The translations under genes were made by a program, and so were the position numbers. Positions 7,132-60,360 of a DNA stretch of 63,783 nt are shown here, in pieces (positions within the stretch are counted from its first letter, which is position 1; each line of letters starts with the position of its first letter). The notes under the pieces are model-generated. The model searched no databases. It saw nothing but the letters and a program-made list of their open reading frames with translations, and was not told the origin of the DNA. The stretch is from Patescibacteria group bacterium (GTDB taxonomy: Bacteria; Patescibacteriota; Patescibacteriia; UBA10025; JAHIVO01), in assembly GCA_018816445.1 (NCBI GenBank), contig JAHIVO010000005.1, positions 1-63,783 of the forward strand. The letters run 5' to 3'.

Positions 7132-7656
7132 TTATAGTAATTTATTTATTTTATTTAGATTAATGTATTGGTACGGCAGGTGGTGATATTTGTCCGGCAA
7201 TTCCGCTTCAATTGGATTTTGTTTGATATATTTAATAACCGTGTATAAATATTTATCCGTATTCACAATTCGTGTATAATAACGTTTTTGCCAAAATGGG
7301 AAATCAACATTATATTGACTGCGGATTTGATTGTAAAAGTATGATTTGAGAGTATAAATAAAATCCGAGATGGTGTTTTGATTACCTCCCACCGCGGGCA
7401 CAGAGACCCGCGTTGGGAGGGGGTTGTTGCCACCCCGAGCGCGGGTGTCCCTGCCCGCGCTCATCGTTAAAATATGAACATGATCCGGCATGATTTGATA
7501 TGATAAAATACCAAATCGTTTCATTTGCCCGGTGCGGAATATGATTTTGGACAACAATTTGGCATGTTTGGTTTCCTCAAACAACGGACACCCTTCCTGT
7601 GTGCGAAATGTTATAAAATATGGATATTCGTTTTGATAAATTCTTCTCTGCGTCAT
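7132..7656 (-). CDS. IS200-like / REP-associated tyrosine transposase (RAYT-type HUH Y1 transposase), copy 1, carrying an in-frame 26-aa insertion
   Basis: HUH motif PDHVHIL and a C-terminal Y..NP motif (YIKQNPIEAEL). A paralogue lies at 59824..60360. Codons at 7385..7462 are a GC-rich double hairpin that the paralogue lacks. Confidence 0.8.
   Translation of the reverse strand: MTQRRIYQNEYPYFITFRTQEGCPLFEETKHAKLLSKIIFRTGQMKRFGILSYQIMPDHVHILTMSAGRDTRARGGNNPLPTRVSVPAVGGNQNTISDFIYTLKSYFYNQIRSQYNVDFPFWQKRYYTRIVNTDKYLYTVIKYIKQNPIEAELPDKYHHLPYQYINLNKINKLL
7385..7462. repeat. GC-rich double hairpin (REP-like) embedded in frame in the RAYT gene
   Basis: Hairpin 1 pairs cctccca/tgggagg and cgcggg/cccgcg. 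Hairpin 2 pairs gagcgcggg/cccgcgctc. The total is 78 nt, or 26 codons. Confidence 0.75.
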
Positions 7657-28345: not shown

Positions 28346-28891
28346 TTATCTTTGGTAAATATAAATTTTACTGGCTCTAGGATGGAATTTTTTTGAATCA
28401 ATGATTTTAGCCGGCTGCCAGGCTTTGATAGCGAAAGCAAAGCTGATAACCCGAGCACCGGGTTTTAGGTCCTGTTCAAGCTTGGCCTGAACTTTCGGCA
28501 TAACACTGTCCATTAAAAAGCAGAATACCACGTCGGCTCCGCTTAAATCCTGCTTGTAAAAGTTTTTATGATATAGGACAGTCTTTGATTTTTTCAGCTT
28601 GATGTTTAATCTAGCTAAAAAGTAAGCCCAGGGCGCGATTTCAAAACCGAATGTATTGGCCCCGGTTCTTTTTTCCACCTCAATTAAAAATCTGGCATCG
28701 CCGCAGCCCAGGTCATAAACGTTTTCCCCGGGTTTAATATTAGCTTCATCCAAGACCATGGCAATGACGCGGTTAGGCGTTCTGACAAAGGGCACCTTGG
28801 TATAAAAAAGGATAACCAAGGTGTATAAAGCCAGGATAGCGAAGGCGATTGAAGCAATTAGTACGAAGATTAACACTATTAAATATTCCAT
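28346..28891 (-). CDS. class I SAM-dependent methyltransferase, membrane-anchored
   Basis: VYDLGCGDARFLIEV (motif I) plus an N-terminal TM helix. Confidence 0.75.
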   Translation of the reverse strand: MEYLIVLIFVLIASIAFAILALYTLVILFYTKVPFVRTPNRVIAMVLDEANIKPGENVYDLGCGDARFLIEVEKRTGANTFGFEIAPWAYFLARLNIKLKKSKTVLYHKNFYKQDLSGADVVFCFLMDSVMPKVQAKLEQDLKPGARVISFAFAIKAWQPAKIIDSKKFHPRASKIYIYQR

Positions 28892-28894
28892 AAT

Positions 28895-30157
28895 TTAAAA
28901 TAATGGCGACTGGCCATGAGCAGATATTTTTTGTTCTTTTTTATTGAATACTTTAACTATGCCGTATTCACCGTCATAGCCGGGTTTAATAACAATGTCA
29001 CCTGTTCTTACTTTTTTAACACCTTCAGCTATTTTTGGCAAGGTTATAGTTTTTAGTTCGTCAAACGGCAGGTTGAGCAGAATGTTAAATTCATTTTTGC
29101 CTTGATTAATCATATTATCATATTCTGCCACTACTTTTTTTGTATTTACACCCTGGTTAAAAGCGTCGGCAATGATTTCCTGTAGGGGCACCAGGCATTT
29201 ATAAGGTGGACGGTTATCAGGCTGGTAGCCTTCCGGCCGGTCGGCCAGCTTATCTACGCGGTAGGACACGCCCACGGTCAGGGGTTTTTTGCATTTAGGG
29301 CAGATACCTTTTTTCTTTTTAGTTTCAGCGGGGGATAAGCAGATATTGCATTTGCGGTGGCCGTCCCAGTGATAGCGGCCTTCTTCAGGATAGAATTCAA
29401 CCGTATGGGCGATTTTATTCTTATTGTCACCCTGTTGTTTAAGGGCTTGGATAATATTTTTATAGCTCAATTGCTCCAGTTCAAAAACAGTGGCTTCACG
29501 CCCCAGTTTGTTGGGAGAGTGGGCATCAGAAAAAGATACAATAGACATGCGATCAAGCTGGGAAATCCGCCAGTTCATGGATGGATCGGAGGAGAGCCCG
29601 GTTTCCACCGCATAAATATGCGGTGTCATTTCTTCCCAGCATTCTTCCACGCTGTCAAAGCCAGACTCTGATCCGAACATTGAAAACCAAGGCGTCCAGA
29701 TATGAGCTGGGAAAACCAGGGCTTCAGGAGAAATTTCTAAAACAATCTTAGCCAGCTCTTTGACATCTAAACCTAAGATAGGGCGTCCGTCTGATTTAAT
29801 ATTACCGATTAAATTTAATTTAGCATTAATTTTTTCTACCACTTCAAGGTCAGGAGCAATGATATTAATATGGACGCGCCGGGTTTTATCATTTTTTTTA
29901 TAAATACAGCTAATTTCTGTAGTTAACATAAATTCTGCTTCATGCTTTCCTTTTTTTAGTTTATACAAACCATTATCCTGAAGTGAAAGTTTTTCTTTAA
30001 GTTCCTTAAACCAGGCCGGATAGGTAAAATCCGTACAAGAAATTATTTGTATACCTTTTTTATCCGCCCACTCGGCCATGGTTTCCAAAGTCATTTGTTT
30101 AGAAACAGCGCGAGAATATTTTGAGTGGGCATGTATGTCTGCTATGTATTCCGCCAT
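28895..30157 (-). CDS. Endonuclease Q-like PHP-domain protein
   Basis: N-terminal ADIHAHSKYSRA PHP motif and an internal zinc finger CNIC...CPKC. The length of about 420 aa also fits. The family was recalled from memory, not searched. Confidence 0.65.
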   Translation of the reverse strand: MAEYIADIHAHSKYSRAVSKQMTLETMAEWADKKGIQIISCTDFTYPAWFKELKEKLSLQDNGLYKLKKGKHEAEFMLTTEISCIYKKNDKTRRVHINIIAPDLEVVEKINAKLNLIGNIKSDGRPILGLDVKELAKIVLEISPEALVFPAHIWTPWFSMFGSESGFDSVEECWEEMTPHIYAVETGLSSDPSMNWRISQLDRMSIVSFSDAHSPNKLGREATVFELEQLSYKNIIQALKQQGDNKNKIAHTVEFYPEEGRYHWDGHRKCNICLSPAETKKKKGICPKCKKPLTVGVSYRVDKLADRPEGYQPDNRPPYKCLVPLQEIIADAFNQGVNTKKVVAEYDNMINQGKNEFNILLNLPFDELKTITLPKIAEGVKKVRTGDIVIKPGYDGEYGIVKVFNKKEQKISAHGQSPLF

Positions 30158-31373: not shown

Positions 31374-32144
31374 TTATTTTATAATTGATTCAGCCAGGTC
31401 CAGCTGTTCATTAGTGTTGATACCCAGACCTTCAATAGGCCGGGCTGATACAGAAGATATTTTTTTCCCCTGTTGGCAGGCCATATGGATTAAGTCGGTA
31501 AGATAATATTCTTTTTGTGAATTATTTTTTGATAATTTATTAATGTTTTTCCAGAGCCACTGGGCATTAAAGCATAAATAGGTTGGGTTAAGTTCCTTGA
31601 TTTTTTTCTCTGTAGCAGTTGCGTCTTTTGTTTCTATAATTTTTACAATATTATTTTGTTTATTCCTAATTACCCTACCTAAGTCATAAAAATTTTTTCT
31701 CCAGCCGGAAAAATTTAGCATGGTAATGGTGGCCATAGTCAGAGTAGCTTTTGTTCGGGTGTGTTGGGTAGCCAGTCGTTTAATTGTTAGGGGATTGATG
31801 TAGGGTTTATCGGCGTAAAGGATTAGAATATGCTTTTTGTTGCTGCTGATTTTATTTTTAACACAAGCAACAGCATGGCCAGTACCCAGTCTTTTTGACT
31901 GAAGTGCATACATGTAATTTTTACCTAAATATTTTTTTACCTTATCTGCCTGGTGTCCGACTACAATAAAGGGTTTATGAGGGTAGCCGGTTTTTTTAAT
32001 AGTATCTGTTACATAACTAATAATTGGCTTGTTGTTTAACAATGTTAATACTTTAGGTAAGGATCCATTGTTCATTCTTTTGCCGCGTCCGGCCGCCAGT
32101 ATTATTATTTGAATATTTTTCATATATATTATAAGAGCCTGCAT
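31374..32144 (-). CDS. sugar-phosphate nucleotidyltransferase (GlmU N-terminal-domain-like)
   Basis: IILAAGRGKRM...LPKVL. The likely true start is MKNIQII at 32123. Confidence 0.75.
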   Translation of the reverse strand: MQALIIYMKNIQIIILAAGRGKRMNNGSLPKVLTLLNNKPIISYVTDTIKKTGYPHKPFIVVGHQADKVKKYLGKNYMYALQSKRLGTGHAVACVKNKISSNKKHILILYADKPYINPLTIKRLATQHTRTKATLTMATITMLNFSGWRKNFYDLGRVIRNKQNNIVKIIETKDATATEKKIKELNPTYLCFNAQWLWKNINKLSKNNSQKEYYLTDLIHMACQQGKKISSVSARPIEGLGINTNEQLDLAESIIK

Positions 32145-32175
32145 AAACCGCAGGCTCGGAAAGGGTAATTGGTAG

Positions 32176-33360
32176 TTAAATTACGCCGTTTTGTTTGCCA
32201 ATGTCTATAAAAGCATCAATGGCCTGCTGGACTTGCTCGTCAGTATGCGCAGCGGATAATTGCACGCGGATTCTGGCTTGATCCTTAGGCACTACTGGAA
32301 ACCAGAAGCCAATTACGTAAATTCCTTTTTCCAGGATATCAGCGGCCATCTTAGCTGCCACTTTAGCGTCGCCAAGCATGATGGGGACAATAGGATGTTC
32401 ATCTCCTTTGGTTGTAAAGCCGGCTTCTGCCATGGCCTGCCTGAATTTTTTTGTATTAGCTGCTAATTTTTCTCGTGCTTGTTTTAGGGCATCAGCATTG
32501 TCAATAATGTATTGTGTGGTAGCGACAATGGAAGGCGAGACAGAGTTAGAGAAAAGATAAGGTCGGGAACGCTGGCGCAGCAGGTCTACGATTTCTTGCC
32601 GAGCAGCAGTTACGCCGCCAGAGGCGCCGCCGAAAGCCTTGCCAAAAGTAGTGGTTATAATATCCACGCGACCTTCAGTGCCGGTGGCTTCTATGCTACC
32701 ACGTCCATTGGGCCCGATCACTCCGGTGGCATGCGAGTCGTCAACCATGACGGCAGCGTCATATTTATCGGCCAGGTCGCAAATTTCTTTAAGTTTGGCT
32801 ACCTCTCCATCCATACTAAAGACGCCGTCAGTTACTACCAGACGAGTACGCTGTTTTTGCGCTTCTTTCAGTTTATCTTCCAAGTCAGCCATATCATGAT
32901 GCTGGAAGCGGTAACGTTCAGCCTTACATAGCCGGACGCCGTCAATAATACTGGCGTGGTTAAGCGCATCTGAGATAATTGCGTCTTCAGCGGTTAAAAT
33001 TGTTTCAAACAGTCCGGCATTAGCGTCAAAACAGGATGAATAAAGGATGGCGCCGTCTGTTTTTAAATATTTTGCCGTGGTTTTTTCTAATTTACGGTGT
33101 TGGTCCTGGGTGCCGCAAATAAAGCGCACTGAAGAAAGGCCGTAGCCATATTTATCAAGGCCATCTTTGGCTGCCTGCACCACTTCCGGCTTATTAGATA
33201 AACCCAGATAATTATTAGCGCAGAAATTGATTACCTCTTTGCCATTGACTTTAATGACCGCTCCCTGGGGCGAGCCAATTTCCCGTTCGGTTTTCCATAA
33301 GCCCTGGTCTTTAATCTCTTTAGCTGTCTGGTTAATAGTATTTTTTAATGATTTAAACAT
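32176..33360 (-). CDS. kbl: 2-amino-3-ketobutyrate CoA ligase (glycine C-acetyltransferase)
   Basis: 394-aa ORF with the PLP-lysine region [12 protein letters not shown], downstream of tdh. Confidence 0.9.
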
Positions 33361-33378
33361 ATTATTTATTTTAAAATA

Positions 33379-34530
33379 TTATTCTTCTAAATTTAAGACT
33401 ACCTTAGGATTGTTTAGCATAGCTTTTTCAAAATCTTCGCTGGTTATTTTACTAAAAGGCAGGATAGTACCCTGGCCATTTTTTAATAATCCTTCCCACA
33501 AGTGTTTTTGGACATTATTGGCAGTATTTTCCAGCAGCTGCTTGGTTGTTTTCCAGTTATCATATATGCGTCGTCCGATTATTGAATGTAGGGTAATACC
33601 CCTGATGATCATGCGATCAAAATCTTTAATAGTCATGTCCCCTGAACACAGGCCGAAAAGTATTATATGCCCGCCTCGCCTGACTGCTTTAACCGCAGTG
33701 TTCAGGCTAGAAGGATAGCCTGTCATTTCCAGGACAACGTCTGCTCCTATGTCGTCAGTGGCTTCAGTGACTTTTTTTATAACATTTTCATCATACCCTT
33801 GATTAGGCTGGCGCACTGTTTGTATTGTCTGATCAGCTCCGAATTGCCGGGCCAGTTTAAGCTTGTGATCATTAGGGTCAATGGCTGTAATTTGTGAAGC
33901 GCCGGTAGCCTTGGCAATTAATATGCACATTAAGCCGATCGGTCCACAGCCTAAAACAGCAACCCGCTTGTTTTTTAGGTCTACGCGGGTAGAAGCGTGC
34001 ACGGCATTGCCGAAAGGTTCCTGGATACTGGCAATTTCCGGCCTGACAATTTTAGGATTAGTTGGCCGCAAGATCAAGGCCGGTATTAAAATATATTTGG
34101 CAAAACAGCCGTTAATGCCAATGCCTAATATTTTTTCATTGGTACAGACATGATGCTCATTATGCAAACACTGGTAGCATTGGCCGCAGGTAATATGAGA
34201 TTCAGCACTGACCGTGTCGCCTTTTTTTATGCCAAACTGGTTTTCCACTTGCGAGCCGGTAGTTATAACCTCACCAAAAAATTCATGGCCAATTATGCGC
34301 TGATCCTTGCCCTCTTTGGATAGGGAGTCAAAAATCATATCCTTAAAAGCTTTCCTGAACCAGATGCCCTTGTCAGATCCGCACACTCCAGCCCGTAATA
34401 CTTTGACTATTGTCCAGAGGGCGTGTTCCGGATTATTATTTTCATCAAGTTTGGGTTCAGGAACTTCTACTTTTTTTAAGCCCTTTGTCTTTTCCCAGTC
34501 ATCGTTTTTATCTATAATAAATGCTTGCAT
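33379..34530 (-). CDS. tdh: L-threonine 3-dehydrogenase (Zn-dependent)
   Basis: GVCGSD, GHEFFGEV, structural-zinc CGQCYQC and GCGPIG. It is paired with kbl. Confidence 0.85.
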   Translation of the reverse strand: MQAFIIDKNDDWEKTKGLKKVEVPEPKLDENNNPEHALWTIVKVLRAGVCGSDKGIWFRKAFKDMIFDSLSKEGKDQRIIGHEFFGEVITTGSQVENQFGIKKGDTVSAESHITCGQCYQCLHNEHHVCTNEKILGIGINGCFAKYILIPALILRPTNPKIVRPEIASIQEPFGNAVHASTRVDLKNKRVAVLGCGPIGLMCILIAKATGASQITAIDPNDHKLKLARQFGADQTIQTVRQPNQGYDENVIKKVTEATDDIGADVVLEMTGYPSSLNTAVKAVRRGGHIILFGLCSGDMTIKDFDRMIIRGITLHSIIGRRIYDNWKTTKQLLENTANNVQKHLWEGLLKNGQGTILPFSKITSEDFEKAMLNNPKVVLNLEE

Positions 34531-34757: not shown

Positions 34758-35543
34758 CTATCTGGCGAAAAGGTTCAAAAGTAATTGGTGTATGTGTTGA
34801 TTTGGGGCGAGGAGTACAGGTAGTGGCTGATCTATTGCCATAATCGGTTTATTATCGAGCGTTGTTGCAATACCACCTATTTCTTGCAGGATCGGCACTG
34901 CCGCCGCAATGTCTACAGACATTGTTCCTGAGCTGATAAAGGCGTGTAGATTGCCTAACATCACTCGTTGACAGGCAAATGTAGTACACCCAAGCAGGTA
35001 CGTGTAGCGAATAGCCGGTGCGAGCACCGATAGGTCAGTAAGAATATCTCTGTCGCGTGTATGATATGTACTGTATTCGTATCCTACAATTAATTGATGT
35101 AGCTCGGGTTTTGTAGGTATTGGTTTGAGCTGTTGGCCATTACACCACGACCCGAGTGACAGTCCCCCCATGAGACATACCTTGGTAATCGGGAAGTAGA
35201 GTACACCGGCGACGAATTGTTGGTCAATCTCCAGTCCGATGGAAATGCCAAAGTCCAGACCAGCAATATAATTTATTGTGCCGTCTACCGGGTCAATGTG
35301 AAATACTCCATCGGTTCCCGAAAAACGGCTTCCTTCCTCACCATTAATGCCAATATTGGGGAAATGTTTTTTCAGTTCAATCACCAATAAACACTCTGCT
35401 TCTGTGTCGGCTTTAGTTGCTATGTTATGCGGCAATCCCTTTGTTATAGTGCTATTTTGGATTTGATCACGCATTTCCAGCACAGTTGATCCAACACTTT
35501 GTGCTATTTTAGCAATAGTGTCCAATTCATCAATTGATAGCAT
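34758..35543 (-). CDS. inositol monophosphatase / CysQ-family phosphatase
   Basis: GEEG and IDPVDGTINY motifs. The start is set at the ATG after the SD GGGAGG. A TTGACA-17-TAATGT promoter lies upstream. Confidence 0.8.
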   Translation of the reverse strand: MLSIDELDTIAKIAQSVGSTVLEMRDQIQNSTITKGLPHNIATKADTEAECLLVIELKKHFPNIGINGEEGSRFSGTDGVFHIDPVDGTINYIAGLDFGISIGLEIDQQFVAGVLYFPITKVCLMGGLSLGSWCNGQQLKPIPTKPELHQLIVGYEYSTYHTRDRDILTDLSVLAPAIRYTYLLGCTTFACQRVMLGNLHAFISSGTMSVDIAAAVPILQEIGGIATTLDNKPIMAIDQPLPVLLAPNQHIHQLLLNLFAR

Positions 35544-35624
35544 AATGTTTCCTCCCTTGTGCAAATTATTCTTCATAATACATTAACAGATGTTATGTTT
35601 TATGTCAAGGCCGTATGATTGAAT

Positions 35625-35657
35625 AAAAAATAAAATCGGAGAAAATAAATTTCTCCG
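35625..35657 (-). terminator. second minus-strand terminator in the GK1-IMPase spacer
   Basis: Stem cggagaaa/tttctccg, with a T-run on the minus strand. Confidence 0.55.
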
Positions 35658-35700
35658 GTTGGGTGAGCTAACTCAGAGAGATTCCTTTAAATTCCATAAT

Positions 35701-35745
35701 AAAAATACCTCCATCAAGTTCGCTTACGCGGTTATGATGGAGGTA
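35701..35745 (-). terminator. rho-independent terminator after the GK-like/PHP operon
   Basis: 11-bp stem tacctccatca/tgatggaggta, with a T-run on the minus strand. Confidence 0.7.
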
Positions 35746-35776
35746 TGTTATAGATCTTTGTAGGATCTACCACGAT

Positions 35777-36523
35777 TCAACTTAATAGACTGGCAATCGT
35801 CTGCGCTGCTATCTCGCTTTGGTCCGTCTGGTTGACGATAAATGCGTCAACGGTTGGTCGATCGACATGCTGTACAGTGAGAGCTTCCTTTAGGTGTTTA
35901 ATGCTCATGCTAAGCCGAGCAATAAATTCTTCACCATCTGTTTCTCTGTTCCTGGACCGCAGCCGCTTTTCCAGCTCTTCAAATGTTGGCGGAAGCACAA
36001 AGATGGATATCCAGGTGGCTTGTGAGATCTTAGAATCTGCATCCTGCAGCAGATCAAGTGGAGTCTTTGCGCTACCTTCCATGACCCATCGGCCGCCTGA
36101 GAGTGCTTTATGGAGATTGGAGCGACATAGGCCGCGCCATTGTCCGTAGCGATTTCTCGGTGTGCCGACGAATTCACCATTGGAAAACATACTTTGAAAT
36201 TTGTTCTCAGTGATGTGCAAGTATTGTTTTCCATCCGTCTCGCCAGGACCGAGCGGCCGTGTAGTATGGCGAGTAAGAAGAGAAAATCCATATTGTGAGA
36301 GCAGTGTCTGGACGATTGTTCCTTTGCCTGCACCTGACGGACCACTAAGAAAGATGAGGTGAGGATGACAAGGATTACTACCAATCCTATCCGCGAGTTG
36401 TCGCATTGTAGCGCGCTGGATCGCTTCTGCCATTTCTAAAAAAGTGGGAGGAGCATCCACAGCACGGGAGTGAAGCAGAGCAACTAGCGTCTCATTCCAA
36501 TCTGTTTTAAGGGTAGTTGTCAT
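35777..36523 (-). CDS. guanylate-kinase-like P-loop kinase with a novel ~55-aa N-terminal extension (GK-like 1)
   Basis: GPSGAGKGT, TTRPLGPGETDGKQY, YGQWRGL and FVLPPTFEELEKRL. Its start overlaps the PHP gene stop (ATGA). Confidence 0.7.
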   Translation of the reverse strand: MTTTLKTDWNETLVALLHSRAVDAPPTFLEMAEAIQRATMRQLADRIGSNPCHPHLIFLSGPSGAGKGTIVQTLLSQYGFSLLTRHTTRPLGPGETDGKQYLHITENKFQSMFSNGEFVGTPRNRYGQWRGLCRSNLHKALSGGRWVMEGSAKTPLDLLQDADSKISQATWISIFVLPPTFEELEKRLRSRNRETDGEEFIARLSMSIKHLKEALTVQHVDRPTVDAFIVNQTDQSEIAAQTIASLLS

Positions 36524-37563
36524 TATTCATCTCCTGTGAGTTTTACCGGCTGCCACTCAAGACGGCCACTACTGTTTCGCTGCCCAGATGTTTGGACAAG
36601 CTCAGTGATGCCATTTCTTAAGCAGAACTGCAGTAGATCATCAAATCCTCTGCCGATCTGGCGCTGGTTATGAGAGTCGTCTCCAGCGGTAAACCCAACG
36701 CCTGCTTGCTGAAATACCGGAATCCAGCGGGCAGGGAAGTAAGGATTGTCTCGATGCTTCCCTTTTTTCATTCCTGACGCGTTCAGGTCGGCAATGATTC
36801 CCAGTTGAGCCATTTTTTGAGCAACGGCTTGGATTATCTTTTGCGTGGCGTCTGTGTCCGGACAGGCATCCAGGTGCTTTTGCCAGGCAAAAGCATGACC
36901 GAGGATGTCAACTTCACTAGTGAGTGAAGAAAGCGTTGCTTCCCATACCGCAATCCAGAAAGCCTCAGGTCCAAGTTGCCGGTATACATCGAGGGTGCGT
37001 TCCAGCTCTCCGTCCTGCCGACCGAGTCGAAGAATTTCTCCGCCAATCTCTGGATAGTGGACCGACATGACTCTGATGATTGTTGGATAATTCTTCGCCA
37101 CCCACTGCAGCGTTGGTGTGGAATCCACAAATCTTGCGGGTAGTTGGTCAAATTCAACACCGACGAGATGAGCTGGTTGAATGGACGTTGCTGCCTCAAG
37201 AAAGACAGGAAAGTCATTTTGCGGCATCACGAGGCGGCAATCCTGAAATGGTTTGCCGTAGCGATCAGCAAAGAATTGCTCGAAGGCTGTCGGAAGCGGA
37301 GCATGACATAAGAGTAGCGGTTCAATTTCCGCTTTCTCATAAGTCAGAAGATAACAGCTAAAAATGGTTTTTAACTGCTCTACTTTTTCTGCTTGAGTCT
37401 CAGGAGCAGGGGATATGGCATAACACCATCGTCGGGCTGGACAATCAGGACATTTATCTGGATATAGCCAGTTCGTACCGAAGTCCTGCGGTTTCAAGCT
37501 CGAGTAGGGCACTGTGTGATTATCAATCACCGAGTGTCCTCCGTGGTTAGAAAAGTTTATCAT
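36523..37563 (-). CDS. PHP-family (histidinol-phosphatase-like) hydrolase with an inserted Cys-containing segment
   Basis: N-terminal NHGGHS, mid DILGHAF and C-terminal AGDDSHN resemble the PHP metal ligands. There is also a CPDCPARRWC segment, and the SD is AAGGAGA. Confidence 0.5.
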   Translation of the reverse strand: MINFSNHGGHSVIDNHTVPYSSLKPQDFGTNWLYPDKCPDCPARRWCYAISPAPETQAEKVEQLKTIFSCYLLTYEKAEIEPLLLCHAPLPTAFEQFFADRYGKPFQDCRLVMPQNDFPVFLEAATSIQPAHLVGVEFDQLPARFVDSTPTLQWVAKNYPTIIRVMSVHYPEIGGEILRLGRQDGELERTLDVYRQLGPEAFWIAVWEATLSSLTSEVDILGHAFAWQKHLDACPDTDATQKIIQAVAQKMAQLGIIADLNASGMKKGKHRDNPYFPARWIPVFQQAGVGFTAGDDSHNQRQIGRGFDDLLQFCLRNGITELVQTSGQRNSSGRLEWQPVKLTGDE

Positions 37564-37674
37564 GAGTTCTCCTTAGTATTCTATGGTTACGGTGAGTATT
37601 CTATTTAGTTGATTTTAATGTGCTTATTTTGATCAAATCAGTAATCATGAAATTACTATTTAATTTGACTTAGT

Positions 37675-37703
37675 ATCATAGCACAACCAGTATAAACTGT
37701 CAA
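37675..37703 (-). promoter_or_regulatory. sigma70-type promoter of the PHP/GK-like operon
   Basis: On the minus strand: TTGACA, a 17-nt spacer, then TATGAT. Confidence 0.55.
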
Positions 37704-38001
37704 TACTTAATTATATAAATAATTATAAGTAGTGAAAGACTTCTAGGCGTTTGGCTAGAAGCTAACAGGAAAAATACCGGCATCATATAAATTTTTTAAC
37801 TCACAATCAATTTATCAATGAAAAGTCATCAATGATCGGCATTCATCTAAAAAAATAATATTAATTGTGATGAGCATAGCTTATTGACTAGGCAACAGTT
37901 TTTGATGTAAACTGATGAGTAATCATCCATTGACGCTGATGAATGGTAATGTATAAGGGAGAAAATGGTCACACCCTAGTGTAAATATTATATTATTTTT
38001 T

Positions 38002-38802
38002 ATGAAGAGTCTACATAAAGATTCGAGAATTTCTAAACTCAGATTGACTGATAATGATATTAAAAAACTATCGGGATTTGAAAAGGAGTGGGAAAGGACA
38101 TTGCGGCTAATTTTTAGATCACGATTTCCTCATAAATACAGCCGGTCAATTACCAGCGTACGCATTCCAGGGTTACTTGAGCGATTATCAATACCAGAGT
38201 GTCGCTACAATCACGGAAAAAATGTACTTTTAAATATTGCGGGACCGTCAGGTGTTGGCAAGGGGACCCTTGGATTGAAATTGGAGCGTAAGGGCATTCA
38301 GCGTTTTGTGCGTACTACTTCACGGCCGCGGAGAACAACAGAGCGTAATGGTGTGGATTATATTTTTTTGAACGAAAAACAGTTTAAAAAAATGCAGACA
38401 AATAATGCATTTTTAAGTGCATTCGCGACTTACGGCGAGTGGCGAGGCATTGACCATAAGACCTTTTGGCAACTTATTCGGAATAATAAGCTATTTTATA
38501 TTGATGGTTGTGCGCAGACCTCAAAAGATATTTTCAAAGCACTCTCCGCAAAAGGATTGCCGTACCTTTCATTGTTCATATTACCACCGAGTTTTCAGGA
38601 GCTTGTAGCGCGATTACTATCTAGAACTTCCGGAGAAAAAGAAAAAGATATTCTTAATCGGCAGATTTTAAGACGCATCAGGAGTGCTTTACAGCATCTA
38701 CGTGAAAGTGGCCTAAAATATCGTGATACAAATTTGATACACGGATATATATTAAATGACAGCGTTGATCGCGCAGTGTGGTCTATCTTGCAGATTATTT
38801 AA
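38002..38802 (+). CDS. guanylate-kinase-like P-loop kinase with a novel ~80-aa N-terminal extension (GK-like 2)
   Basis: GPSGVGKGT, TTSRPRRTTERNGVDY, YGEWRGI and FILPPSFQELVARL. It is a paralogue of 35777..36523. Confidence 0.7.
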   Translation: MKSLHKDSRISKLRLTDNDIKKLSGFEKEWERTLRLIFRSRFPHKYSRSITSVRIPGLLERLSIPECRYNHGKNVLLNIAGPSGVGKGTLGLKLERKGIQRFVRTTSRPRRTTERNGVDYIFLNEKQFKKMQTNNAFLSAFATYGEWRGIDHKTFWQLIRNNKLFYIDGCAQTSKDIFKALSAKGLPYLSLFILPPSFQELVARLLSRTSGEKEKDILNRQILRRIRSALQHLRESGLKYRDTNLIHGYILNDSVDRAVWSILQII

Positions 38803-38809
38803 AAAAAAT

Positions 38810-39514
38810 ATGCAAACAAAACAGAATCAACTTTGGATTATTGATATAGACGGGACGATTGTTAATGTGCATAGTAATCAGGTTCCTGCCTGGTTAAATA
38901 TGTTTCGCGATGTTTACGGAGTCACTATGGATGAGACCACACTAGTTACTTTTTTTGGGAAGCCGTTTACATCTGTGCTGGTTGAAGCTCTCAGCCATGC
39001 CGGACTCTCTGAAGCTGAAGTTCTTACCCGGTATGACCAGGCTTTTGCCGGCTATGTAAAAGGTGTTCAAGACGGGCTTGATAAGAATGGTGGTTCAATT
39101 TTGCCTGGCGCACTTAATTTCTTAGAGGAACTTGGCAAGCGAAAAATTTTACGGGCCATTTCTACCGGCAATCCTGAGGATGAGGCCGTACATAAGCTTC
39201 GCTTTTTTAATTTATTGAAATATTTTGAGATAATGGTATTTGCTGGGGATCGCCGCGAACGTTTTGAGTTGGTTGAAGAAGTATTGCGCCGCGCTGATAA
39301 AGAATATGGCGTATCTGTGCAAGGTAAGCAGGTACATATTATTGGTGATTCGCCGCATGATATTGTCAGCGCAAAGAAAATCGGCGCTGTCAGTGTGGCG
39401 GTATCTACTGGACCGACTCCATATGAGACATTAGCCAAGTCTAAGCCGGATTTAATATACCGTTCGCTTGAAGATTATCAGGGGATAATCAGAGAGGCTT
39501 CAGAAATTAGATAA
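38810..39514 (+). CDS. HAD-superfamily phosphatase (phosphoglycolate-phosphatase-like)
   Basis: Motif I IIDIDGTIVN, with GDSPHDIVSAKKIG near the C-terminus. The start is set at MQTKQNQ. Confidence 0.8.
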   Translation: MQTKQNQLWIIDIDGTIVNVHSNQVPAWLNMFRDVYGVTMDETTLVTFFGKPFTSVLVEALSHAGLSEAEVLTRYDQAFAGYVKGVQDGLDKNGGSILPGALNFLEELGKRKILRAISTGNPEDEAVHKLRFFNLLKYFEIMVFAGDRRERFELVEEVLRRADKEYGVSVQGKQVHIIGDSPHDIVSAKKIGAVSVAVSTGPTPYETLAKSKPDLIYRSLEDYQGIIREASEIR

Positions 39515-39586: not shown

Positions 39587-40690
39587 CTAGACCATGAAGG
39601 TTGTAAGTGTTTTTTGCGATTTGGTGAAGACCGGGAGTTCATCAAGAATCCCGAGCATGGCACCAGCCGCTTCCATAGCCATGGCAAAGAGCGGAGCGAG
39701 CATAATATCCCGCTGTCGTCTTGAAATCCACTGGATTTCCCGAAGCAGGTACATCATGCAACATGCATATAGACTAGGCATGTCAATTGAATCGCCAATC
39801 TCACTAAAGATAATATCTCTAGCTTTCAGGATTATCTCGTGCACTTCTTTAGGGAGCTTAACCTGGTAATCGATGGTCGGTACGCCATCAATGATTTGGT
39901 ATTCAAACTTGACCTTTTCTGACATGGTAGCAGCAAACCACAGAAGCAGTTTAGCTATCGGTTCGCCGATTATCCGACGTCCGGCTTCACCAACGTCAAC
40001 GTAAGCGATTCTACTGCCTGCACTGTCTAAAATGGAATTACACAACCCTTCATCGCCGTGTGACAGGACGGTCGTTTTACACTGACCTACCAGCCTTCCC
40101 ATTGCGTAAAGCATTTCATTGAGCGGCGGAAGCTGAACCTTATTGACAACTATCGGCTTGGCAGCTACGTCGGATAAGAAAGCCGACCAGATAGACAGAC
40201 TTAATGCAAGATCAGTGGTTTTGTTGGTCTTTCCGATGTAGCTTCCTGAACAGGCCGGGCTATTTGTGGAAAGAGTGTCTTTCCACATTTGCAGATGTTC
40301 ACTTACGGTTCGCAGGTACCAATCTGATCCGTTAAAGTTGTGCATTGTAGGTTGGCGTATCAGCTGATCAATAGTTGGCCCCGAGATTTTTTCGTACAGT
40401 GAAAAATCGTCAGCGGGATCACCAACAAAATCAGGTGTTGGCAACCAGCGTGAGAGTAACTCTGCGCCTGCGCGTTCTTGTCGCCCAATCCCTGGAGCTA
40501 CTTTGATCATCAAAGGCTGCGGTTTACCATTTGGAGGTGTAGCATTAAAGAATGCCAGGGTAGCCCCTGATACCATATCAATGCCCATCTCAAAAATTCG
40601 CTCGATGACAATCTTAGACTCAGGAAAAAGCTCAACTAACAGCTTTCTTAACGTATCAGGACTTAACTGTTTCAGATCTTCAATAGTCAA
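39587..40690 (-). CDS. APH/choline-kinase-fold small-molecule kinase
   Basis: Catalytic-loop-like LSHGDEGLCNSIL, followed by AYVDVGEAG (a DxG/DFG-like motif). TTG start after the SD GGAAGGAGAG. Confidence 0.6.
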   Translation of the reverse strand: MTIEDLKQLSPDTLRKLLVELFPESKIVIERIFEMGIDMVSGATLAFFNATPPNGKPQPLMIKVAPGIGRQERAGAELLSRWLPTPDFVGDPADDFSLYEKISGPTIDQLIRQPTMHNFNGSDWYLRTVSEHLQMWKDTLSTNSPACSGSYIGKTNKTTDLALSLSIWSAFLSDVAAKPIVVNKVQLPPLNEMLYAMGRLVGQCKTTVLSHGDEGLCNSILDSAGSRIAYVDVGEAGRRIIGEPIAKLLLWFAATMSEKVKFEYQIIDGVPTIDYQVKLPKEVHEIILKARDIIFSEIGDSIDMPSLYACCMMYLLREIQWISRRQRDIMLAPLFAMAMEAAGAMLGILDELPVFTKSQKTLTTFMV

Positions 40691-40839: not shown

Positions 40840-41679
40840 TTATTGTTTTTTCCATTCTTTCAGGGCATCTTCATATATTTCAGGCGTACCGACATCAAAC
40901 CACTGTCCTTCAAAGGGATAACCAAATAATTTTCCTTCTTTGGCTAATTGCGGGAAGATGTCTTTTTCCAGCATGGTATATCCCTGCTTTGGAATATAAT
41001 TAATAATTTCCGGGTTGAAAATAAATAGTCCCGCATTTATAAAGTGGGAAACGCCTTTTTTCTTTTCTGGCTTTTCCCGGAAAGATATTACTTTGTTGCC
41101 GCGCAGTTTAACTACCCCAAAGTCGTATGGCTTGGCTGAAGAGGTGATAGCAATAGTAACCGGACCGCTGTGAGAAAGATGGTATTCAATTATTTCTTTT
41201 ATATTTATGCTAATTAGAATATCGCCATACATCATTAGGAATGGGGAATTGTTAAGGTGCTGCTGAAAGAGTCGTAGCGGCGCGCCGGTACCTTGTTCTT
41301 TGCGTTCTTTGATATACGTAATTTTAACTCCAAAACGGGAGCCGTCGCCGAAATGGGAAATTATTTTTTCACCTAGATGCCCGATTAATATATAAATATC
41401 TTTTAGGCCATTTTCTCGTAGCAATTCAATTGAGTATTCTAGAATGGGCTTACCGCGAACCGGTATCAATGATTTAGGAATTTCATAAGTAAATGGGCGC
41501 ATGTTAGCACCGCGGCCGGCTGCTAAGATAAAGGCTTTTTTTATTTTTGGTCCCAGAGACTGACTTAGTAAGTACTCAATGGCGTGGGATCGGTTTCTGA
41601 TCCTGGAGCCGTCAATTACTTCGTCAATTCGTGGGAGTAGGTCCTTTTTTATGGTAATTGTAAGTCTTTTCCTATCCAT
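40840..41679 (-). CDS. ribbon-helix-helix (CopG-like) domain fused to a sugar-1-phosphate nucleotidyltransferase
   Basis: N-terminal RLTITIKKDLLPRIDEVI...NRSHAIEYLLSQSL, then ILAAGRGANMRPFT..PKSLIPV.GKPIL. Confidence 0.75.
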   Translation of the reverse strand: MDRKRLTITIKKDLLPRIDEVIDGSRIRNRSHAIEYLLSQSLGPKIKKAFILAAGRGANMRPFTYEIPKSLIPVRGKPILEYSIELLRENGLKDIYILIGHLGEKIISHFGDGSRFGVKITYIKERKEQGTGAPLRLFQQHLNNSPFLMMYGDILISINIKEIIEYHLSHSGPVTIAITSSAKPYDFGVVKLRGNKVISFREKPEKKKGVSHFINAGLFIFNPEIINYIPKQGYTMLEKDIFPQLAKEGKLFGYPFEGQWFDVGTPEIYEDALKEWKKQ

Positions 41680-41852: not shown

Positions 41853-44549
41853 TTATAAAGCAAAGGAATTAGGCAGCAATATTGGGCTGCATTCCCAGCT
41901 GCCGCCTACCTTTTTGCAGCATTCCAGGTCTTGGCAGGTATATCCTTCTGGACAGGTAACACCACAAAGGCCGCATTCTGCAATAAGCGTCCCATTATCA
42001 CAATATCTCTGGCCGGAGTTGCATTCACCCCAGGGAGTGCCGTCAGAGCAGGCTTCAATCTCATCACATATACCATCAGTACAGCCAGCACAATTATAAG
42101 AAGTATATTCACAAAAACCATCGTATTCATCAGAGCAAACAGCTTCAATAGTATCGTCATCACCACAGACGTCAGCGTAAGTACCTAGAGCATCGGTGCA
42201 GGTGCCGGCAGTTAAATGATTGTCACCATCAGAATCACTGCAGGTTGAATTGCCGGCTGGAATAACAGTCAGTAAAAGTTGGGGTCTTAAGTCGGGATCA
42301 GCGTGTTCTGAAGAAGCAAAATGCTTAATATATGAAAACACATCTTCCGGTACATTAGCTTTCAGCATAAAAGTTGGGTTGAGCTTGTTAATATATTGTG
42401 TGACGTCAATATATGTATGATATGCCCAGGGCCGGTGATTATAAATATGGTCAATAAATTCCCACTCATCCGGGTTATCATCGTCATCGTATTCTAAAGT
42501 GCCATAATCATCCATTGAATAAATATCAATAGTTTTTTCTTCTTCCTGTTCAATTTGTTCAAAGGCATATAAACGTAGTTGCGCCGCTACAACAGTTGAC
42601 AGGTCAATGCCGCTTAAATTAAATTTTAGGAATGCTTTATCATATTCAAATATTGGGTTAATAGTGCTAACCGTTAATTGATCAGAAAATTCATCAATCC
42701 AGTAGACCGGCGGATAAGGAGAACCCCAGCCCATGATTGATCCGTCGTGTACAGGATCACGCTTTTCTATTTCTCCATAGGTAATTTTTATCGTAATGTC
42801 GTCATCAGTAACATTGGTAGTCTGCAGGCCAATCCCGCCAGTTACCCCATACCAGGTATTGGGTTCATCCAGGATGGATTCATTTAAATGCATAGCCGGA
42901 TTAATCGGAATATTTATATAATTATCCGGATTAGCCATGATCAAGTGTGATTTATTCGGCTGCAACATCGAGGAGCAGACCACCCAGTCACAATTATTAT
43001 AATGGACCAGCACTCCATCAGTAATATGCCCCTCATTACCTCCGTCAATAATTGAATCAGTCCCTATAGCTTGACGGCGTTCAATATACAGCCATTGTTT
43101 GTTATCTCCCGATAGACTTTCGCGGTGTATTTTTACCGCTTTAGTGAGGGTAGCTGGATCTTCATAATTGCCAATGGTTACTTCATGCATGCCGGCTGTA
43201 TTAATAGTGGTAATTTCACTATCTTCCAGCCAGCCCAGTTTTTCTTTTTGCGACGCGCTCATATGGGGAAGGCCAGTAGAGTATGTATTGCCCATAATAC
43301 TGTAAATATCCCCATATTCGTACGCATAGCATTCCTCCAGATCATCAAAGTCAGGATAGGTTTCACGCGGCCAGCATTGCAGTTTTGTTGAATGCCAAAG
43401 TCCAAAGGCGTGGCCCAGTTCGTGGAAATGCACATACTTATAGTTGCTGTAAAAGCCAGTATAGACCATAGTTAATGAGGTGGTAATTTCTCCTTCATGA
43501 GTATTAAGGGGTATTTTACCGACCGATGAGCGTCCTCCATACATATCATTACCGCATAACAAGCCTGTGCCAGGCACCACAAACACTACCCGTTCATAAT
43601 TCTGCTGGTCATCCGTAATCCAATCAACTGAGTTGAGAGCAGGATTATTAACTAGGGCCAGAGAAGCATCCCAGTCACACGGCGGATCGGGTTGGTTGAA
43701 GTCAGCCGGACCAAAAACATCTCCGGATAAATATGCTTTGTCATATGAGTATTCCTGGTAAATTTCATTAACTGAGTCTTCATTGTTAAAATAGTAATTT
43801 TCAGCGTAGACGGCATTCTGGCCGGCCGGAAAAGTACGCTTGTCAAATTTGGCCATAATGACCAGGGTTTTTTGTTCACCAATAGTATCCTCGGAAGTTG
43901 TCGCTCGTATGATAGTTGAAGTTTTTTCTGCGGTATAGAATATGCCATTCAGCAAGAAACCTTGGCTATTAACCTGGTCCTGATCATTAAATCCATAATT
44001 ACCTAAAAAGGAAATGATTTGCCTTTTGCCCTGGCCATTGGCGTCATGGTAATAAATATTGGTTTTTGAAAAAGATTTTGGTTTAATGAAATCATCGATA
44101 GTCAAGAATTCAATCGTCCCATCAAAGGTGGCCGGAGTTTCAATATAATCATCCAGAAAATCCGGCAGGGAATCAGCTTGCGGACTGGTTAGGATGTCAT
44201 CAAAAATTGATTCATCATTATTGATAATTTTTTCTTCCAGCGCAGTTTTTCTGTTGGCAGAAATTTCTATCATGGTATTTTTTACTGATTCCTTATTTTG
44301 CGCAGTAGCGCGCTGGTATTCAGAATTCTTGGCTAATAGCCGCTGGGTCAGTGTTGTCTGGGTAGGGGTGGCTTCTTTTTTTTCAGTAGAACTTAATACT
44401 CCAATAATAAAAGCACCAGCTACAATAACACCAGACAGCATCATAATAGCAACCGAGATTTTCTGGTAAATATTTACTTTGGTTTTTGTTTCCGTAATAG
44501 TACTGTTATTAGGCATAAAATTTTTCTTAGTTTTTTTAAGAGGAGGCAT
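41853..44549 (-). CDS. large membrane-anchored HExxH zinc metalloprotease with a C-terminal Cys-rich domain
   Basis: HFHELGHAFGLWHS (HExxHxxGxxH), an N-terminal TM helix, and about 30 Cys in the last 150 aa. Confidence 0.7.
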   Translation of the reverse strand: MPPLKKTKKNFMPNNSTITETKTKVNIYQKISVAIMMLSGVIVAGAFIIGVLSSTEKKEATPTQTTLTQRLLAKNSEYQRATAQNKESVKNTMIEISANRKTALEEKIINNDESIFDDILTSPQADSLPDFLDDYIETPATFDGTIEFLTIDDFIKPKSFSKTNIYYHDANGQGKRQIISFLGNYGFNDQDQVNSQGFLLNGIFYTAEKTSTIIRATTSEDTIGEQKTLVIMAKFDKRTFPAGQNAVYAENYYFNNEDSVNEIYQEYSYDKAYLSGDVFGPADFNQPDPPCDWDASLALVNNPALNSVDWITDDQQNYERVVFVVPGTGLLCGNDMYGGRSSVGKIPLNTHEGEITTSLTMVYTGFYSNYKYVHFHELGHAFGLWHSTKLQCWPRETYPDFDDLEECYAYEYGDIYSIMGNTYSTGLPHMSASQKEKLGWLEDSEITTINTAGMHEVTIGNYEDPATLTKAVKIHRESLSGDNKQWLYIERRQAIGTDSIIDGGNEGHITDGVLVHYNNCDWVVCSSMLQPNKSHLIMANPDNYINIPINPAMHLNESILDEPNTWYGVTGGIGLQTTNVTDDDITIKITYGEIEKRDPVHDGSIMGWGSPYPPVYWIDEFSDQLTVSTINPIFEYDKAFLKFNLSGIDLSTVVAAQLRLYAFEQIEQEEEKTIDIYSMDDYGTLEYDDDDNPDEWEFIDHIYNHRPWAYHTYIDVTQYINKLNPTFMLKANVPEDVFSYIKHFASSEHADPDLRPQLLLTVIPAGNSTCSDSDGDNHLTAGTCTDALGTYADVCGDDDTIEAVCSDEYDGFCEYTSYNCAGCTDGICDEIEACSDGTPWGECNSGQRYCDNGTLIAECGLCGVTCPEGYTCQDLECCKKVGGSWECSPILLPNSFAL

Positions 44550-44649
44550 AAAGGTAAGTTATTAATAATATTTATTTAATATTAGCATTTTTTTATTGTT
44601 TTTCCAAATTGAAAAACACCCTTCATGTAGAAAGGCGTTTTTCATATAA

Positions 44650-44764
44650 ACTGGCGATGGCCTACTTTCCCCACGGTTGCACCGTAGTATCATCAGCGCT
44701 GCCGGGCTTAACTGCTGAGTTCGGGATGGGATCAGGTGTGACCCCGGCGCTTAAATCACCAGAG
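44650..44764 (-). rRNA. rrf: 5S rRNA
   Basis: The reverse complement reads CTGGTGATTTAAGCGCCGGGGTCACACCTGATCCCATCCCGAACTCAGCAGTTAAGC...GGCCATCGCCAG, with terminal pairing CTGGTGAT/ATCGCCAG. Confidence 0.9.
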
Positions 44765-44931
44765 GGGTGGAAAATAATGGTGATTATTTTCTACGCCTCT
44801 ATTATTACGGGTGACTTATATTTTCATAGGAGCAAGATAGAAGAGCATCCCAAAAAATACAATTGCCAGTAGAAAAATCATTATTAAATGATATTGTTTT
44901 GTTTTCTCCATGTTGTTAAATATTCAGTAAT

Positions 44932-48122
<3,191 letters not shown>

Positions 48123-59823: not shown

Positions 59824-60360
59824 ATGTTTAAAAAACATCGCCCACCACATATTTATCATGATAACCAAATATATTTTATTACAGCTAATACATTTGGGTG
59901 GATAAAGTATTTTAGAAGAAATTCCAGGAAAGAATTAATGAAAGGGATTCTACTATTGTTAATTAATCGCTATAAGTTGGAATTGCATGCTTGGGTAATT
60001 CTTGAAAACCATTACCATCTGCTAATTAAGGTTAATAGTGGCATTAATTTATCGTATTTTATTAGAAAATTTCATAGTGATATTGCATTATTAATCAATT
60101 CTTTAGAAAGAAAAAAAGGGCAAAGAATAATATATCAGTATTGGGATAAGTGTATAGAAACGGATAAAGAGTATTGGACCAGATTTAACTATATTCATCA
60201 TAATCCCGTAAAGCATGGTTTAGTGCAATACATGAATGATTATTTGTATTCCAGCTATAGATATTATTTATCAGAAAAAGGAAACCAGTGGCTTAGCTCA
60301 TGTTTTGAAGTATACCCGATTATTGGTTTTACCCGCGACGCGAAGCTGGTGCTTCGCTAG
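59824..60360 (+). CDS. IS200-like / RAYT-type HUH Y1 transposase, copy 2
   Basis: HUH motif NHYHLLI and YIHHNPVKHGL. The last codons run through a GC hairpin, gcgaagc-tggt-gcttcgc. Confidence 0.8.
   Translation: MFKKHRPPHIYHDNQIYFITANTFGWIKYFRRNSRKELMKGILLLLINRYKLELHAWVILENHYHLLIKVNSGINLSYFIRKFHSDIALLINSLERKKGQRIIYQYWDKCIETDKEYWTRFNYIHHNPVKHGLVQYMNDYLYSSYRYYLSEKGNQWLSSCFEVYPIIGFTRDAKLVLR

Follow-up and report, generated by a model that had tools for sequence, protein, structure and literature searches.

The described systems that come closest to the gene cluster reported here are the guanylate kinases (Gmk; yeast Guk1, 1GKY, and the Escherichia coli enzyme, 2AN9); PhnN, a kinase of the same guanylate kinase (GK) fold whose acceptor is a sugar bisphosphate, ribose 1,5-bisphosphate; the HisJ/HisK phosphatases of the PHP family (TIGR01856; 2YXO, 3DCP, 4GC3/4GYF); and the sugar-activation routes of HddA/GmhB/HddC, leading to GDP-D-glycero-α-D-manno-heptose, and of MupP/AmgK/MurU. 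The cluster lies in a 63,783-nucleotide stretch of DNA (contig JAHIVO010000005.1, positions 1 to 63,783; hereafter the window) from a Patescibacteria group bacterium, a groundwater metagenome organism; the same DNA is also present in the NCBI metagenome-assembled genome GCA_018813575.1 and on a 75.9-kb ENA contig. Its core, on the predicted identity of the genes, is two tightly coupled kinase-phosphatase couples arranged divergently: a PHP phosphatase gene followed by a GK-like kinase gene (GK1) on one strand, and a second GK-like kinase gene (GK2) followed by a HAD phosphatase gene on the other. Patescibacteria have a minimal metabolism with many unexplained gaps, and the cluster points to an uncharacterised phosphometabolite route; its five to six genes would specify three kinases and two phosphatases, all annotated as "hypothetical" or "guanylate kinase". 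The features of the locus are listed below, with the E-values of profile matches in brackets.

34758-35576, minus strand: IMPase-family phosphatase (PF00459, 1e-36), a neighbour outside the conserved module
35637-35657, minus strand: terminator-like hairpin and T-run 3' of GK1, with an 8-bp stem CGGAGAAA...TTTCTCCG, then ATTTTATTTT
35777-36523, minus strand: GK1, predicted GK-fold P-loop kinase, 248 residues (PF00625, 8.4e-16)
36523-37563, minus strand: PHP, predicted HisJ/HisK-type metallophosphatase, 346 residues (NCBIfam HisJ, 4.5e-10, below cutoff)
37564-38001, no strand: divergent intergenic region, 438 bp, AT-rich (GC 0.29)
38002-38802, plus strand: GK2, predicted paralogous GK-fold kinase, 266 residues (PF00625, 1.9e-13)
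38810-39514, plus strand: HAD, predicted HAD-IA phosphatase with a DIDGT motif, 234 residues (Pfam HAD_2, 2.1e-18)
39587-40690, minus strand: APH-like kinase candidate, 367 residues (HGDEGLCN and VDVGEAG motifs; no Pfam or NCBIfam match)
40840-41679, minus strand: predicted sugar-1-phosphate nucleotidyltransferase with an N-terminal RHH domain, 279 residues (PF00483, 1.3e-43; RHH_1 weak)

The gene calls and gene order given in a preliminary description of this DNA were borne out by the open reading frame (ORF) listing and profile scans, as were the AT-rich divergent region and the placing of HAD directly after GK2, its start lying 7 nt past the GK2 stop. The overlap between PHP and GK1 which had been read as ATGA does exist, but its sequence is TAATG with 1 shared nt, since the PHP stop and the GK1 start have a single base in common (gaa TAATG aca); a GGAG is found 8 nt 5' of the GK1 ATG. 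A promoter match close to the consensus, TTGACA-17-TATGAT preceded by an extended TG, is located at 37703-37675(-) and is directed at the PHP gene, and the hairpin at 35637-35657(-), between GK1 and the IMPase gene, marks the predicted end of a PHP-GK1 operon. The promoter match facing PHP and the terminator-like hairpin after GK1 thus suggest that the IMPase gene forms a separate transcription unit. The limits first drawn around the module, which closed at 38802, were too narrow, as the unit continues past this position with the HAD, APH-like kinase and nucleotidyltransferase genes.

The two GK-fold kinases

GK1 and GK2 are paralogous, as had been proposed, with 27% identity over nearly their full length (E 1e-21), and both exceed the gathering cutoff of PF00625 (58.6 and 51.0 bits, respectively, against 25.2). 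Neither reaches the cutoff of the Gmk equivalog TIGR03263 (87.6 and 87.8 bits against 160) or that of PhnN, TIGR02322 (30.5 and 17.9 bits against 156). Together with their relatives they make up eight GK-like proteins which form a clade of their own (neighbour-joining bootstrap 100), apart from E. coli PhnN and from the canonical Gmk sequences, including the Patescibacterial one.

Individual residues were mapped by alignment to yeast Guk1, E. coli Gmk and E. coli PhnN and are given in yeast Guk1 numbering; S34, E69, S80 and D100 we take, from the 1GKY complex, to be the guanine contacts, and the numbering of the Guk1 sequence agrees with this. The fold, the P-loop, the lid arginines, the TTR/R41/E44/Y50 segment and the IFxLPPS motif are common to Gmk and the GK-like proteins. 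The P-loop GPSGxGKGT is retained, the lid residues R131, R135 and R146 are invariant, and amongst the residues which bind the acceptor phosphate R38 and E44 are retained and R41 and Y50 mostly so. In contrast to Gmk, all eight members have Arg in place of S34, Gly or Ser in place of E69 and Leu, Ile or Ala in place of S80, and the phosphate contact Y78 is likewise replaced by Arg throughout; Y77 is Trp (Phe in one), and in GK1 itself the changes are S34R, E69G, Y78R and S80L. The DIDxQG segment of Gmk has become xG(S/C)A with an insertion of 6 residues, and the fate of D100 is alignment-dependent, the residue being either replaced by S/C or displaced by the insertion. Also added to the Gmk plan are an N-terminal hairpin of 55-75 residues and a C-terminal insertion in which a His-Leu pair is invariant. 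From these residues we conclude that GK1 and GK2 are predicted active GK-fold kinases in which the catalytic apparatus is intact and the acceptor pocket has been rebuilt; the acceptor would present a phosphate and is probably other than GMP, and probably more anionic. The view of the preliminary description that neither is likely to be a housekeeping Gmk is therefore upheld, both by the replaced guanine-contact residues and by scores of ~88 bits against a cutoff of 160. Of the two motifs which it held to be specific to this family, YGxWRG is indeed so, but F(V/I)LPP(T/S)F(E/Q)EL is an ordinary Gmk motif, for which the canonical consensus is IFILPPSFEELE.

PhnN, for which one sequence, that of E. 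coli, was compared, likewise carries Arg at the S34 position; its residue at E69 is non-acidic and that at S80 hydrophobic, and its NGSRA at the DIDxQG site resembles the G-S-x-A of the GK-like proteins. The GK-like proteins thus follow in part the acceptor-site pattern of PhnN, the only enzyme of this fold known to use a sugar bisphosphate. However, PhnN keeps Y78, where the GK-like proteins have Arg, and is without the N-terminal extension; it is encoded in E. coli in the phn C-P lyase operon, whereas no phn genes were found in the window or in the related loci. The GK-like proteins would represent a clean natural case of a nucleotide-kinase scaffold whose acceptor site has been refitted, parallel to PhnN, and automatic annotation would name both of them "guanylate kinase", inflating the capacity for nucleotide metabolism that these genomes appear to have.

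The N-terminal extensions, which had been described as different from each other, proved to be homologous helical hairpins (hhalign probability 90.6%, E 1.3e-6), each consisting of a W-N-x-x-L helix and then an L-L-E helix, within ~55 residues in GK1 and ~75 in GK2. As the two extension profiles match each other, the extension is older than the GK1/GK2 duplication. In the AlphaFold2 model of GK2 (predicted local distance difference test, pLDDT, 89.9) it forms two long confident helices, 17-41 and 52-67; the ~195-residue core alone matches solved structures, all of which are Gmk (Foldseek E ~1e-13, template-modelling (TM) score ~0.8 on target). The GK2 proteins are very basic (isoelectric point, pI, ~10-10.7), but the charge of the extension is no pointer to nucleic-acid binding, since the pI of a canonical Patescibacterial Gmk is just as high (10.4).

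The phosphatases and the sugar-related partners

Membership of the PHP family was proposed for the first phosphatase and holds, but its assignment to the TrpH type does not, as both profile and fold place it with HisJ/HisK. A Pfam scan of the window protein at E<=0.01 gave no PHP match, TIGR01856 (33.9 bits against a cutoff of 90.2) and PRK08123 (39.3 against 133) were not reached, and no TrpH-type protein was present among the NCBIfam matches. Its AlphaFold2 model (pLDDT 88.7) is confident save for residues 17-50, and the best fold matches were 2YXO (TM 0.74 on target), 3DCP/6NLR and 4GYF, with the PolX PHP domains and YcdX next; no TrpH-type structure was found in the best 50 Foldseek matches. 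All nine metal-ligand positions in common with HisJ/HisK are conserved (H7, H10, H16, H87, E137, H169, H223, D296 and H298), and the HGGHS variant of motif I is common to PHP and some HisJ-like proteins. On profile and model, the latter showing the (βα)7 barrel of PHP enzymes, the protein is a predicted HisJ-type trinuclear-metal phosphomonoesterase. It differs from HisJ/HisK in having an identity of only ~20%, in scoring below every HisJ cutoff and in its genomic context, as it always adjoins HAD and, except in one lineage (L004, below), has the GK-like genes adjacent, with no his genes nearby; none were detected among the profiled ORFs.

A further difference is a cysteine-rich insert. The CPDCPARRWC sequence noticed previously is present at residues 38-47 and belongs to a family-specific insert of ~40 residues (about 17-56), situated after the first metal-binding loop, which carries C38, C41 and C47; C70 lies just past it on helix α1 (57-77). 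The four cysteines C38, C41, C47 and C70, together with C234, are invariant in 7/7 members of the PHP family, and HisJ-like relatives are without the insert. No fold was assigned to it because the AlphaFold2 confidence in this region is <50. The enzyme may be described as a HisJ barrel with a Cys-rich insert.

The HAD protein is a capped type-IA enzyme with weak similarity to a YjjG-type nucleotidase; among solved structures 2HCF, a protein whose function is unknown, comes closest to it (E 3.5e-32), and its start at 38810 is supported because the N-termini of the orthologues agree. No Pfam match at E<=1 was obtained for the adjacent 367-residue protein. HGDEGLCN (catalytic loop) and VDVGEAG (DxG) are conserved in three orthologues, and a three-sequence profile aligns to the catalytic loop and DxG of APH(3') at E 0.02; it is a probable small-molecule kinase of protein-kinase-like fold, and its gene adjoins the module in the window, L003 and L005 (for these loci see below). 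The nucleotidyltransferase has as closest PDB relatives UDP-glucose pyrophosphorylase (UGPase) and mannose 1-phosphate guanylyltransferases. Two lineages have this gene, that of L003 being found at the equivalent position with 72.7% identity. Its fusion to the RHH (CopG-like DNA-binding) domain is also kept in L003 (1339-2205), and the protein may in addition regulate transcription.

Recurrence of the cluster

The conserved unit, as far as the predicted genes allow it to be defined, is the divergent arrangement of GK2 and HAD with PHP and GK1, plus the APH-like kinase and often the sugar-1-phosphate nucleotidyltransferase. Outside the window, the full unit was found in three lineages of Patescibacteria type (L001/L003, L005 and L006), with flanking genes which differ among the loci, and a fourth lineage (L004) has the HAD-PHP pair alone. 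Bins with the module are GCA_018813575.1/ERZ27247128, JBDRMK01 and GCA_964395185.1, and L005 derives from ERR14788038. The arrangements are as follows.

L001/L003: NTP-transferase, APH-like kinase, GK2 leading back into HAD, PHP leading on into GK1, then a phosphomannose isomerase (PMI)-type cupin
L005: cupin, GK2 leading back into HAD, PHP in the forward direction, then GK1 and an APH-like gene on the opposite strand
L006: PHP leading back into GK1, GK2 leading on into HAD
L004: HAD divergent from PHP, without GK genes, then GlmS-/GlmU-like genes; a canonical gmk of 189 residues further along the contig

Identities to the corresponding window proteins were:

PHP: L003 62%, L005 39%, L006 41%, L004 44%
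GK1: L003 54%, L005 43%, L006 34%, L004 none
GK2: L003 56%, L005 45%, L006 44%, L004 none
HAD: L003 64%, L005 65%, L006 67%, L004 67%
APH-like kinase: L003 47% (46.5%), L005 34% (E 8e-32), no value for L006 and L004

HAD is the best-conserved gene of the module in all loci (62-66% in the multiple alignment, 64-67% pairwise), and the spacers are short in every case, with a 1-nt overlap, 4 nt or 10 nt between PHP and GK1 and 7-27 nt between GK2 and HAD. Both GK paralogues are present in every lineage which has either. It had been left open in the preliminary description whether the pairing of PHP with a GK-like gene extended to any other genome; the comparison of neighbourhoods found it conserved in further genomes.

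The family is nevertheless a small one. When 1.84 billion cluster representatives were searched exhaustively with HMMER, 4 PHP clusters were obtained at E<1e-30, the matches after these being ordinary HisJ-like proteins at 1e-7, and a word-indexed search with the PHP protein returned itself and one 61%-identical protein; the profile of the GK-like alignment retrieved ~7 members and then canonical Gmk. No relatives were found when JGI metagenome contigs were scanned with the PHP alignment, and no PHP relatives were found in the viral contigs scanned. Viral matches to the GK-like proteins were two only, at 30-36% identity and over the P-loop/NMP segment alone (query residues 73-147). With the HAD alignment, the JGI scan gave one uninformative HAD fragment by an insertion sequence (IS) element: this fragment, which is 71% identical, lies at 1466-1750 of L007 (Ga0180007_10118056), at the end of a high-GC contig where it adjoins an IS-type integrase. 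In the literature, no paper was found which ties GK-like, PHP and HAD genes together, or which deals with PhnN homologues, in the Candidate Phyla Radiation (CPR). The closest module-bearing relative is itself labelled "Patescibacteria group bacterium", and the cluster is rare, vertically conserved and so far found only in Patescibacteria-type contigs. A family restricted to so few lineages, set against billions of proteins, probably carries little ecological weight. These are known enzyme kinds in a new variant, of moderate interest to enzymology and for the correction of "guanylate kinase" annotations in Patescibacteria.

Proposed function and competing explanations

We tentatively propose, in full view of the fact that the case falls short of a probable one, that the cluster serves a small phosphometabolite pathway, most likely of a sugar or ribose (bis)phosphate, which feeds the adjacent nucleotidyltransferase. 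The small molecule to whose phosphate each GK-like kinase would add a further one would contain no guanine and would probably be doubly anionic, a sugar or ribose bisphosphate being the most likely candidate and a non-canonical nucleotide a possible one; PHP and HAD would each remove a phosphate at a position differing from that used by the partner kinase, and each kinase may be held to its phosphatase by the common N-terminal helical hairpin. Along with the nucleotidyltransferase and the APH-like kinase, which is possibly anomeric, these enzymes would interconvert and activate a phosphosugar, following a logic in which a kinase makes a bisphosphate, a HAD phosphatase acts upon it and an NDP-sugar results; the GDP-heptose and AmgK/MupP/MurU routes are similarly built. 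The likeness to those routes would be one of gene types, set against the pathways as they are generally known: an APH-like kinase (as AmgK), a capped HAD protein resembling phosphoglycolate phosphatase, and an NTP_transferase with similarity to MurU/HddC/ManC. A PMI-type cupin adjoins the module in three loci (L001, L003 and L005), the proximity of such an isomerase fitting a sugar-activation route, and in L004 it is the HAD-PHP pair which has the GlmS- and GlmU-like genes beside it. However, no member of the module reaches any equivalog cutoff, and to our knowledge neither the GDP-heptose nor the MupP/AmgK/MurU pathway includes a GK-fold kinase or a PHP phosphatase.

A bolder version of this proposal, which we regard as speculative and unlikely, is that GK1 and GK2 constitute a new GK-fold family which, with each kinase complexed to its partner phosphatase through the hairpin, converts a phosphate of a sugar or ribose bisphosphate into a pyrophosphate. 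The product would be an activated sugar resembling phosphoribosyl pyrophosphate (PRPP) or a new nucleotide-like metabolite, and with the APH-like kinase and nucleotidyltransferase some Patescibacteria would have a mutase-independent route to an activated envelope sugar.

Several points weigh against the phosphosugar proposal. Each functional step is drawn from residues and neighbouring genes, and the APH-like assignment from motifs and a profile match at E = 0.02. The GK-like proteins score 88 bits as Gmk and 30/18 as PhnN, so that the PhnN-like changes could be convergent or coincidental, whilst stacking of the conserved Trp of YGxWRG against a base is conceivable and would point to a nucleotide as acceptor. 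Prs is encoded in the genome (53510-54496) and a second PRPP route is thus not obviously needed. The window and L003 also share a wider synteny, with an EndoQ-like gene and a methyltransferase close by, and their agreement alone is therefore weak evidence of functional coupling; L004 has neither GK gene beside PHP and HAD, from which it follows that the kinases and phosphatases are not obligatorily linked.

Patescibacteria rely on salvage, and the same enzymes could be read as a non-canonical form of nucleotide salvage in which the APH-like kinase yields a nucleoside monophosphate (NMP), the GK-like kinases carry it to the diphosphate or beyond, and PHP and HAD trim imported or damaged nucleotides, the scavenged substrate being either a nucleoside or an NMP, though not GMP. 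The GK fold with its retained R38, R41, E44 and Y50 is typical of NMP kinases, and the conserved Trp in the base pocket and the weak similarity of HAD to a YjjG-type nucleotidase are both consistent with such a role. Nevertheless, no base-specific residues are recognisable in the GK-like proteins, HisJ-type PHP enzymes are not known as nucleotidases and the neighbours are sugar-nucleotide genes rather than genes of nucleotide metabolism, and we consider salvage somewhat unlikely. The model put forward in the preliminary description, in which a nucleoside 3'(2'),5'-bisphosphate (pAp, pNp) is both produced and broken down by the module, with a TrpH-type PHP enzyme and a CysQ-type IMPase, now appears improbable. 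TrpH/YciV (cog0613 PHP) and the CysQ pAp phosphatases do have the PHP and IMPase superfamilies in common with the proteins of this locus, an IMPase-family gene does lie next door in the window, and the two extra arginines (S34R and Y78R) could hold an additional phosphate. However, PHP is HisJ-type by profile and fold, with 0/50 of its best matches TrpH-type. The IMPase assignment is confirmed (PF00459, 1e-36) but the CysQ one is not supported, given that CysQ TIGR01331 (54.1 bits, cutoff 228.8) scores below HisN (88.5 bits, cutoff 275) and FBPase/IMPase (66.6), with all subfamily scores far below their cutoffs. The IMPase gene is, moreover, a separate unit outside the module and is absent beside it in L001, L003, L004, L005 and L006; its place there is taken by a PMI-type cupin or by other genes. 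The link to nucleoside bisphosphates is thus unsupported.

It is very unlikely that one of the GK-like genes is a divergent housekeeping guanylate kinase and the other a recent redundant copy. Both proteins pass the Pfam Guanylate_kin gathering score, and no canonical gmk was found in the window, where tblastn gave the two GK-like genes alone, or to either end of the 75.9-kb contig. However, S34, E69, S80 and the phosphate contact Y78 are replaced in 8/8 members, both paralogues are kept wherever either occurs and fall in a clade separate from canonical Gmk, the equivalog scores are about half of the cutoff, and on the L004 contig the PHP-HAD pair coexists with a canonical gmk of 189 residues. 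(Two CPR-like proteins that were candidates for Gmk were set aside as they come from other, unrelated assemblies and not from this genome.) A role in nucleic-acid end-healing, with the GK-like proteins as polynucleotide kinases and the phosphatases acting on 3'-phosphates, as in T4 Pnkp (kinase and HAD) or the PHP domain of PolX, would account for the pairing of kinases with phosphatases, for the pI of ~10-10.7 of the GK2 proteins and for the PolX domains ranking second among the PHP fold matches. We judge it highly improbable: the canonical Patescibacterial Gmk is as basic, HAD is of the capped type-IA, small-molecule kind, PHP is closest to the small-molecule HisJ enzymes, and no partner of the ligase, nuclease or Hen1-like kind is present in the cluster. 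A conflict or defence system which makes and destroys a nucleotide-derived signal or toxin is barely credible, even with a rare and patchy distribution, a mixture of kinases and phosphatases and an RHH domain on a neighbouring gene, as the context is one of chromosomal housekeeping genes (rRNA, purD, prs and polA) which are syntenic in related genomes, no PHP relatives were found in viral contigs and no effector-like gene is present. In agreement with the previous remark that no known pathway or defence system matches, PADLOC-DB gave 0 matches for 7 proteins at E<=0.01, and the PHROGs matches were to generic guanylate kinase and HAD families only.

Several minor features of the locus and its surroundings were also recorded. 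The NCBI gene models are shorter than the ORFs used here (PHP 335 residues, GK2 233, APH-like kinase 285). That of PHP is probably too short, its start falling after the HGGH motif, and those of GK2 and the APH-like kinase probably are as well. With these apparently late starts, PHP would lose the conserved HGGH motif, GK2 its conserved N-terminal hairpin and the APH-like protein a conserved stretch at its N-terminus. In the 438-bp spacer, an Rfam scan at E<=1 gave no match and no riboswitch, and alignment with L001 and L003 revealed no conserved element except the promoter-like boxes. The module had also been called a higher-GC island, which is true of PHP (0.493) and GK1 (0.487) relative to the window mean of 0.41 but not of GK2 (0.395) or HAD (0.431), and ordinary genes of the window such as purD (0.536) and a thiolase (0.523) exceed both of the former.

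The window is chromosomal, with 23S and 5S rRNA, two tRNAs, purD and prs. At 44649-48116 (minus strand), the 23S rRNA spans 3182 nt against a 2925-position model, with ~250 nt extra, and is adjoined by the 5S; no 16S rRNA gene was found anywhere in the 63.8-kb window and the rRNA operon therefore appears to be unlinked. On the IMPase side of the module, 31374-34530 (minus strand) encodes a threonine dehydrogenase-like zinc-dependent alcohol dehydrogenase and a Kbl-like class-II aminotransferase, flanked by the IMPase gene and by a GlmU-N-like nucleotidyltransferase with a GT2 glycosyltransferase; this block stands where L003 has its PMI-type cupin. Beyond it, 28346-30157 (minus strand) encodes a 420-residue PHP_C/zinc-ribbon protein, which we take to be EndoQ-like, and then a small methyltransferase; the family goes by PF27218 (MJ0043_C) in the related loci, and the 420-residue protein recurs in L001/L003, where two or three genes separate it from the module, and on the L004 contig (64% and 55.5% identity). 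Two ORFs resembling IS200/Y1 transposases are located at 59824-60360 (plus strand) and 7132-7656 (minus strand), one with a weak Pfam match and one with a faint one. Finally, 41853-44549 (minus strand) encodes a protein of 898 residues with no Pfam match, in which an N-terminal hydrophobic segment, a zincin-type HELGHAFGLWH motif and a Cys-rich C-terminal region are present, and which is probably a secreted or surface protease.

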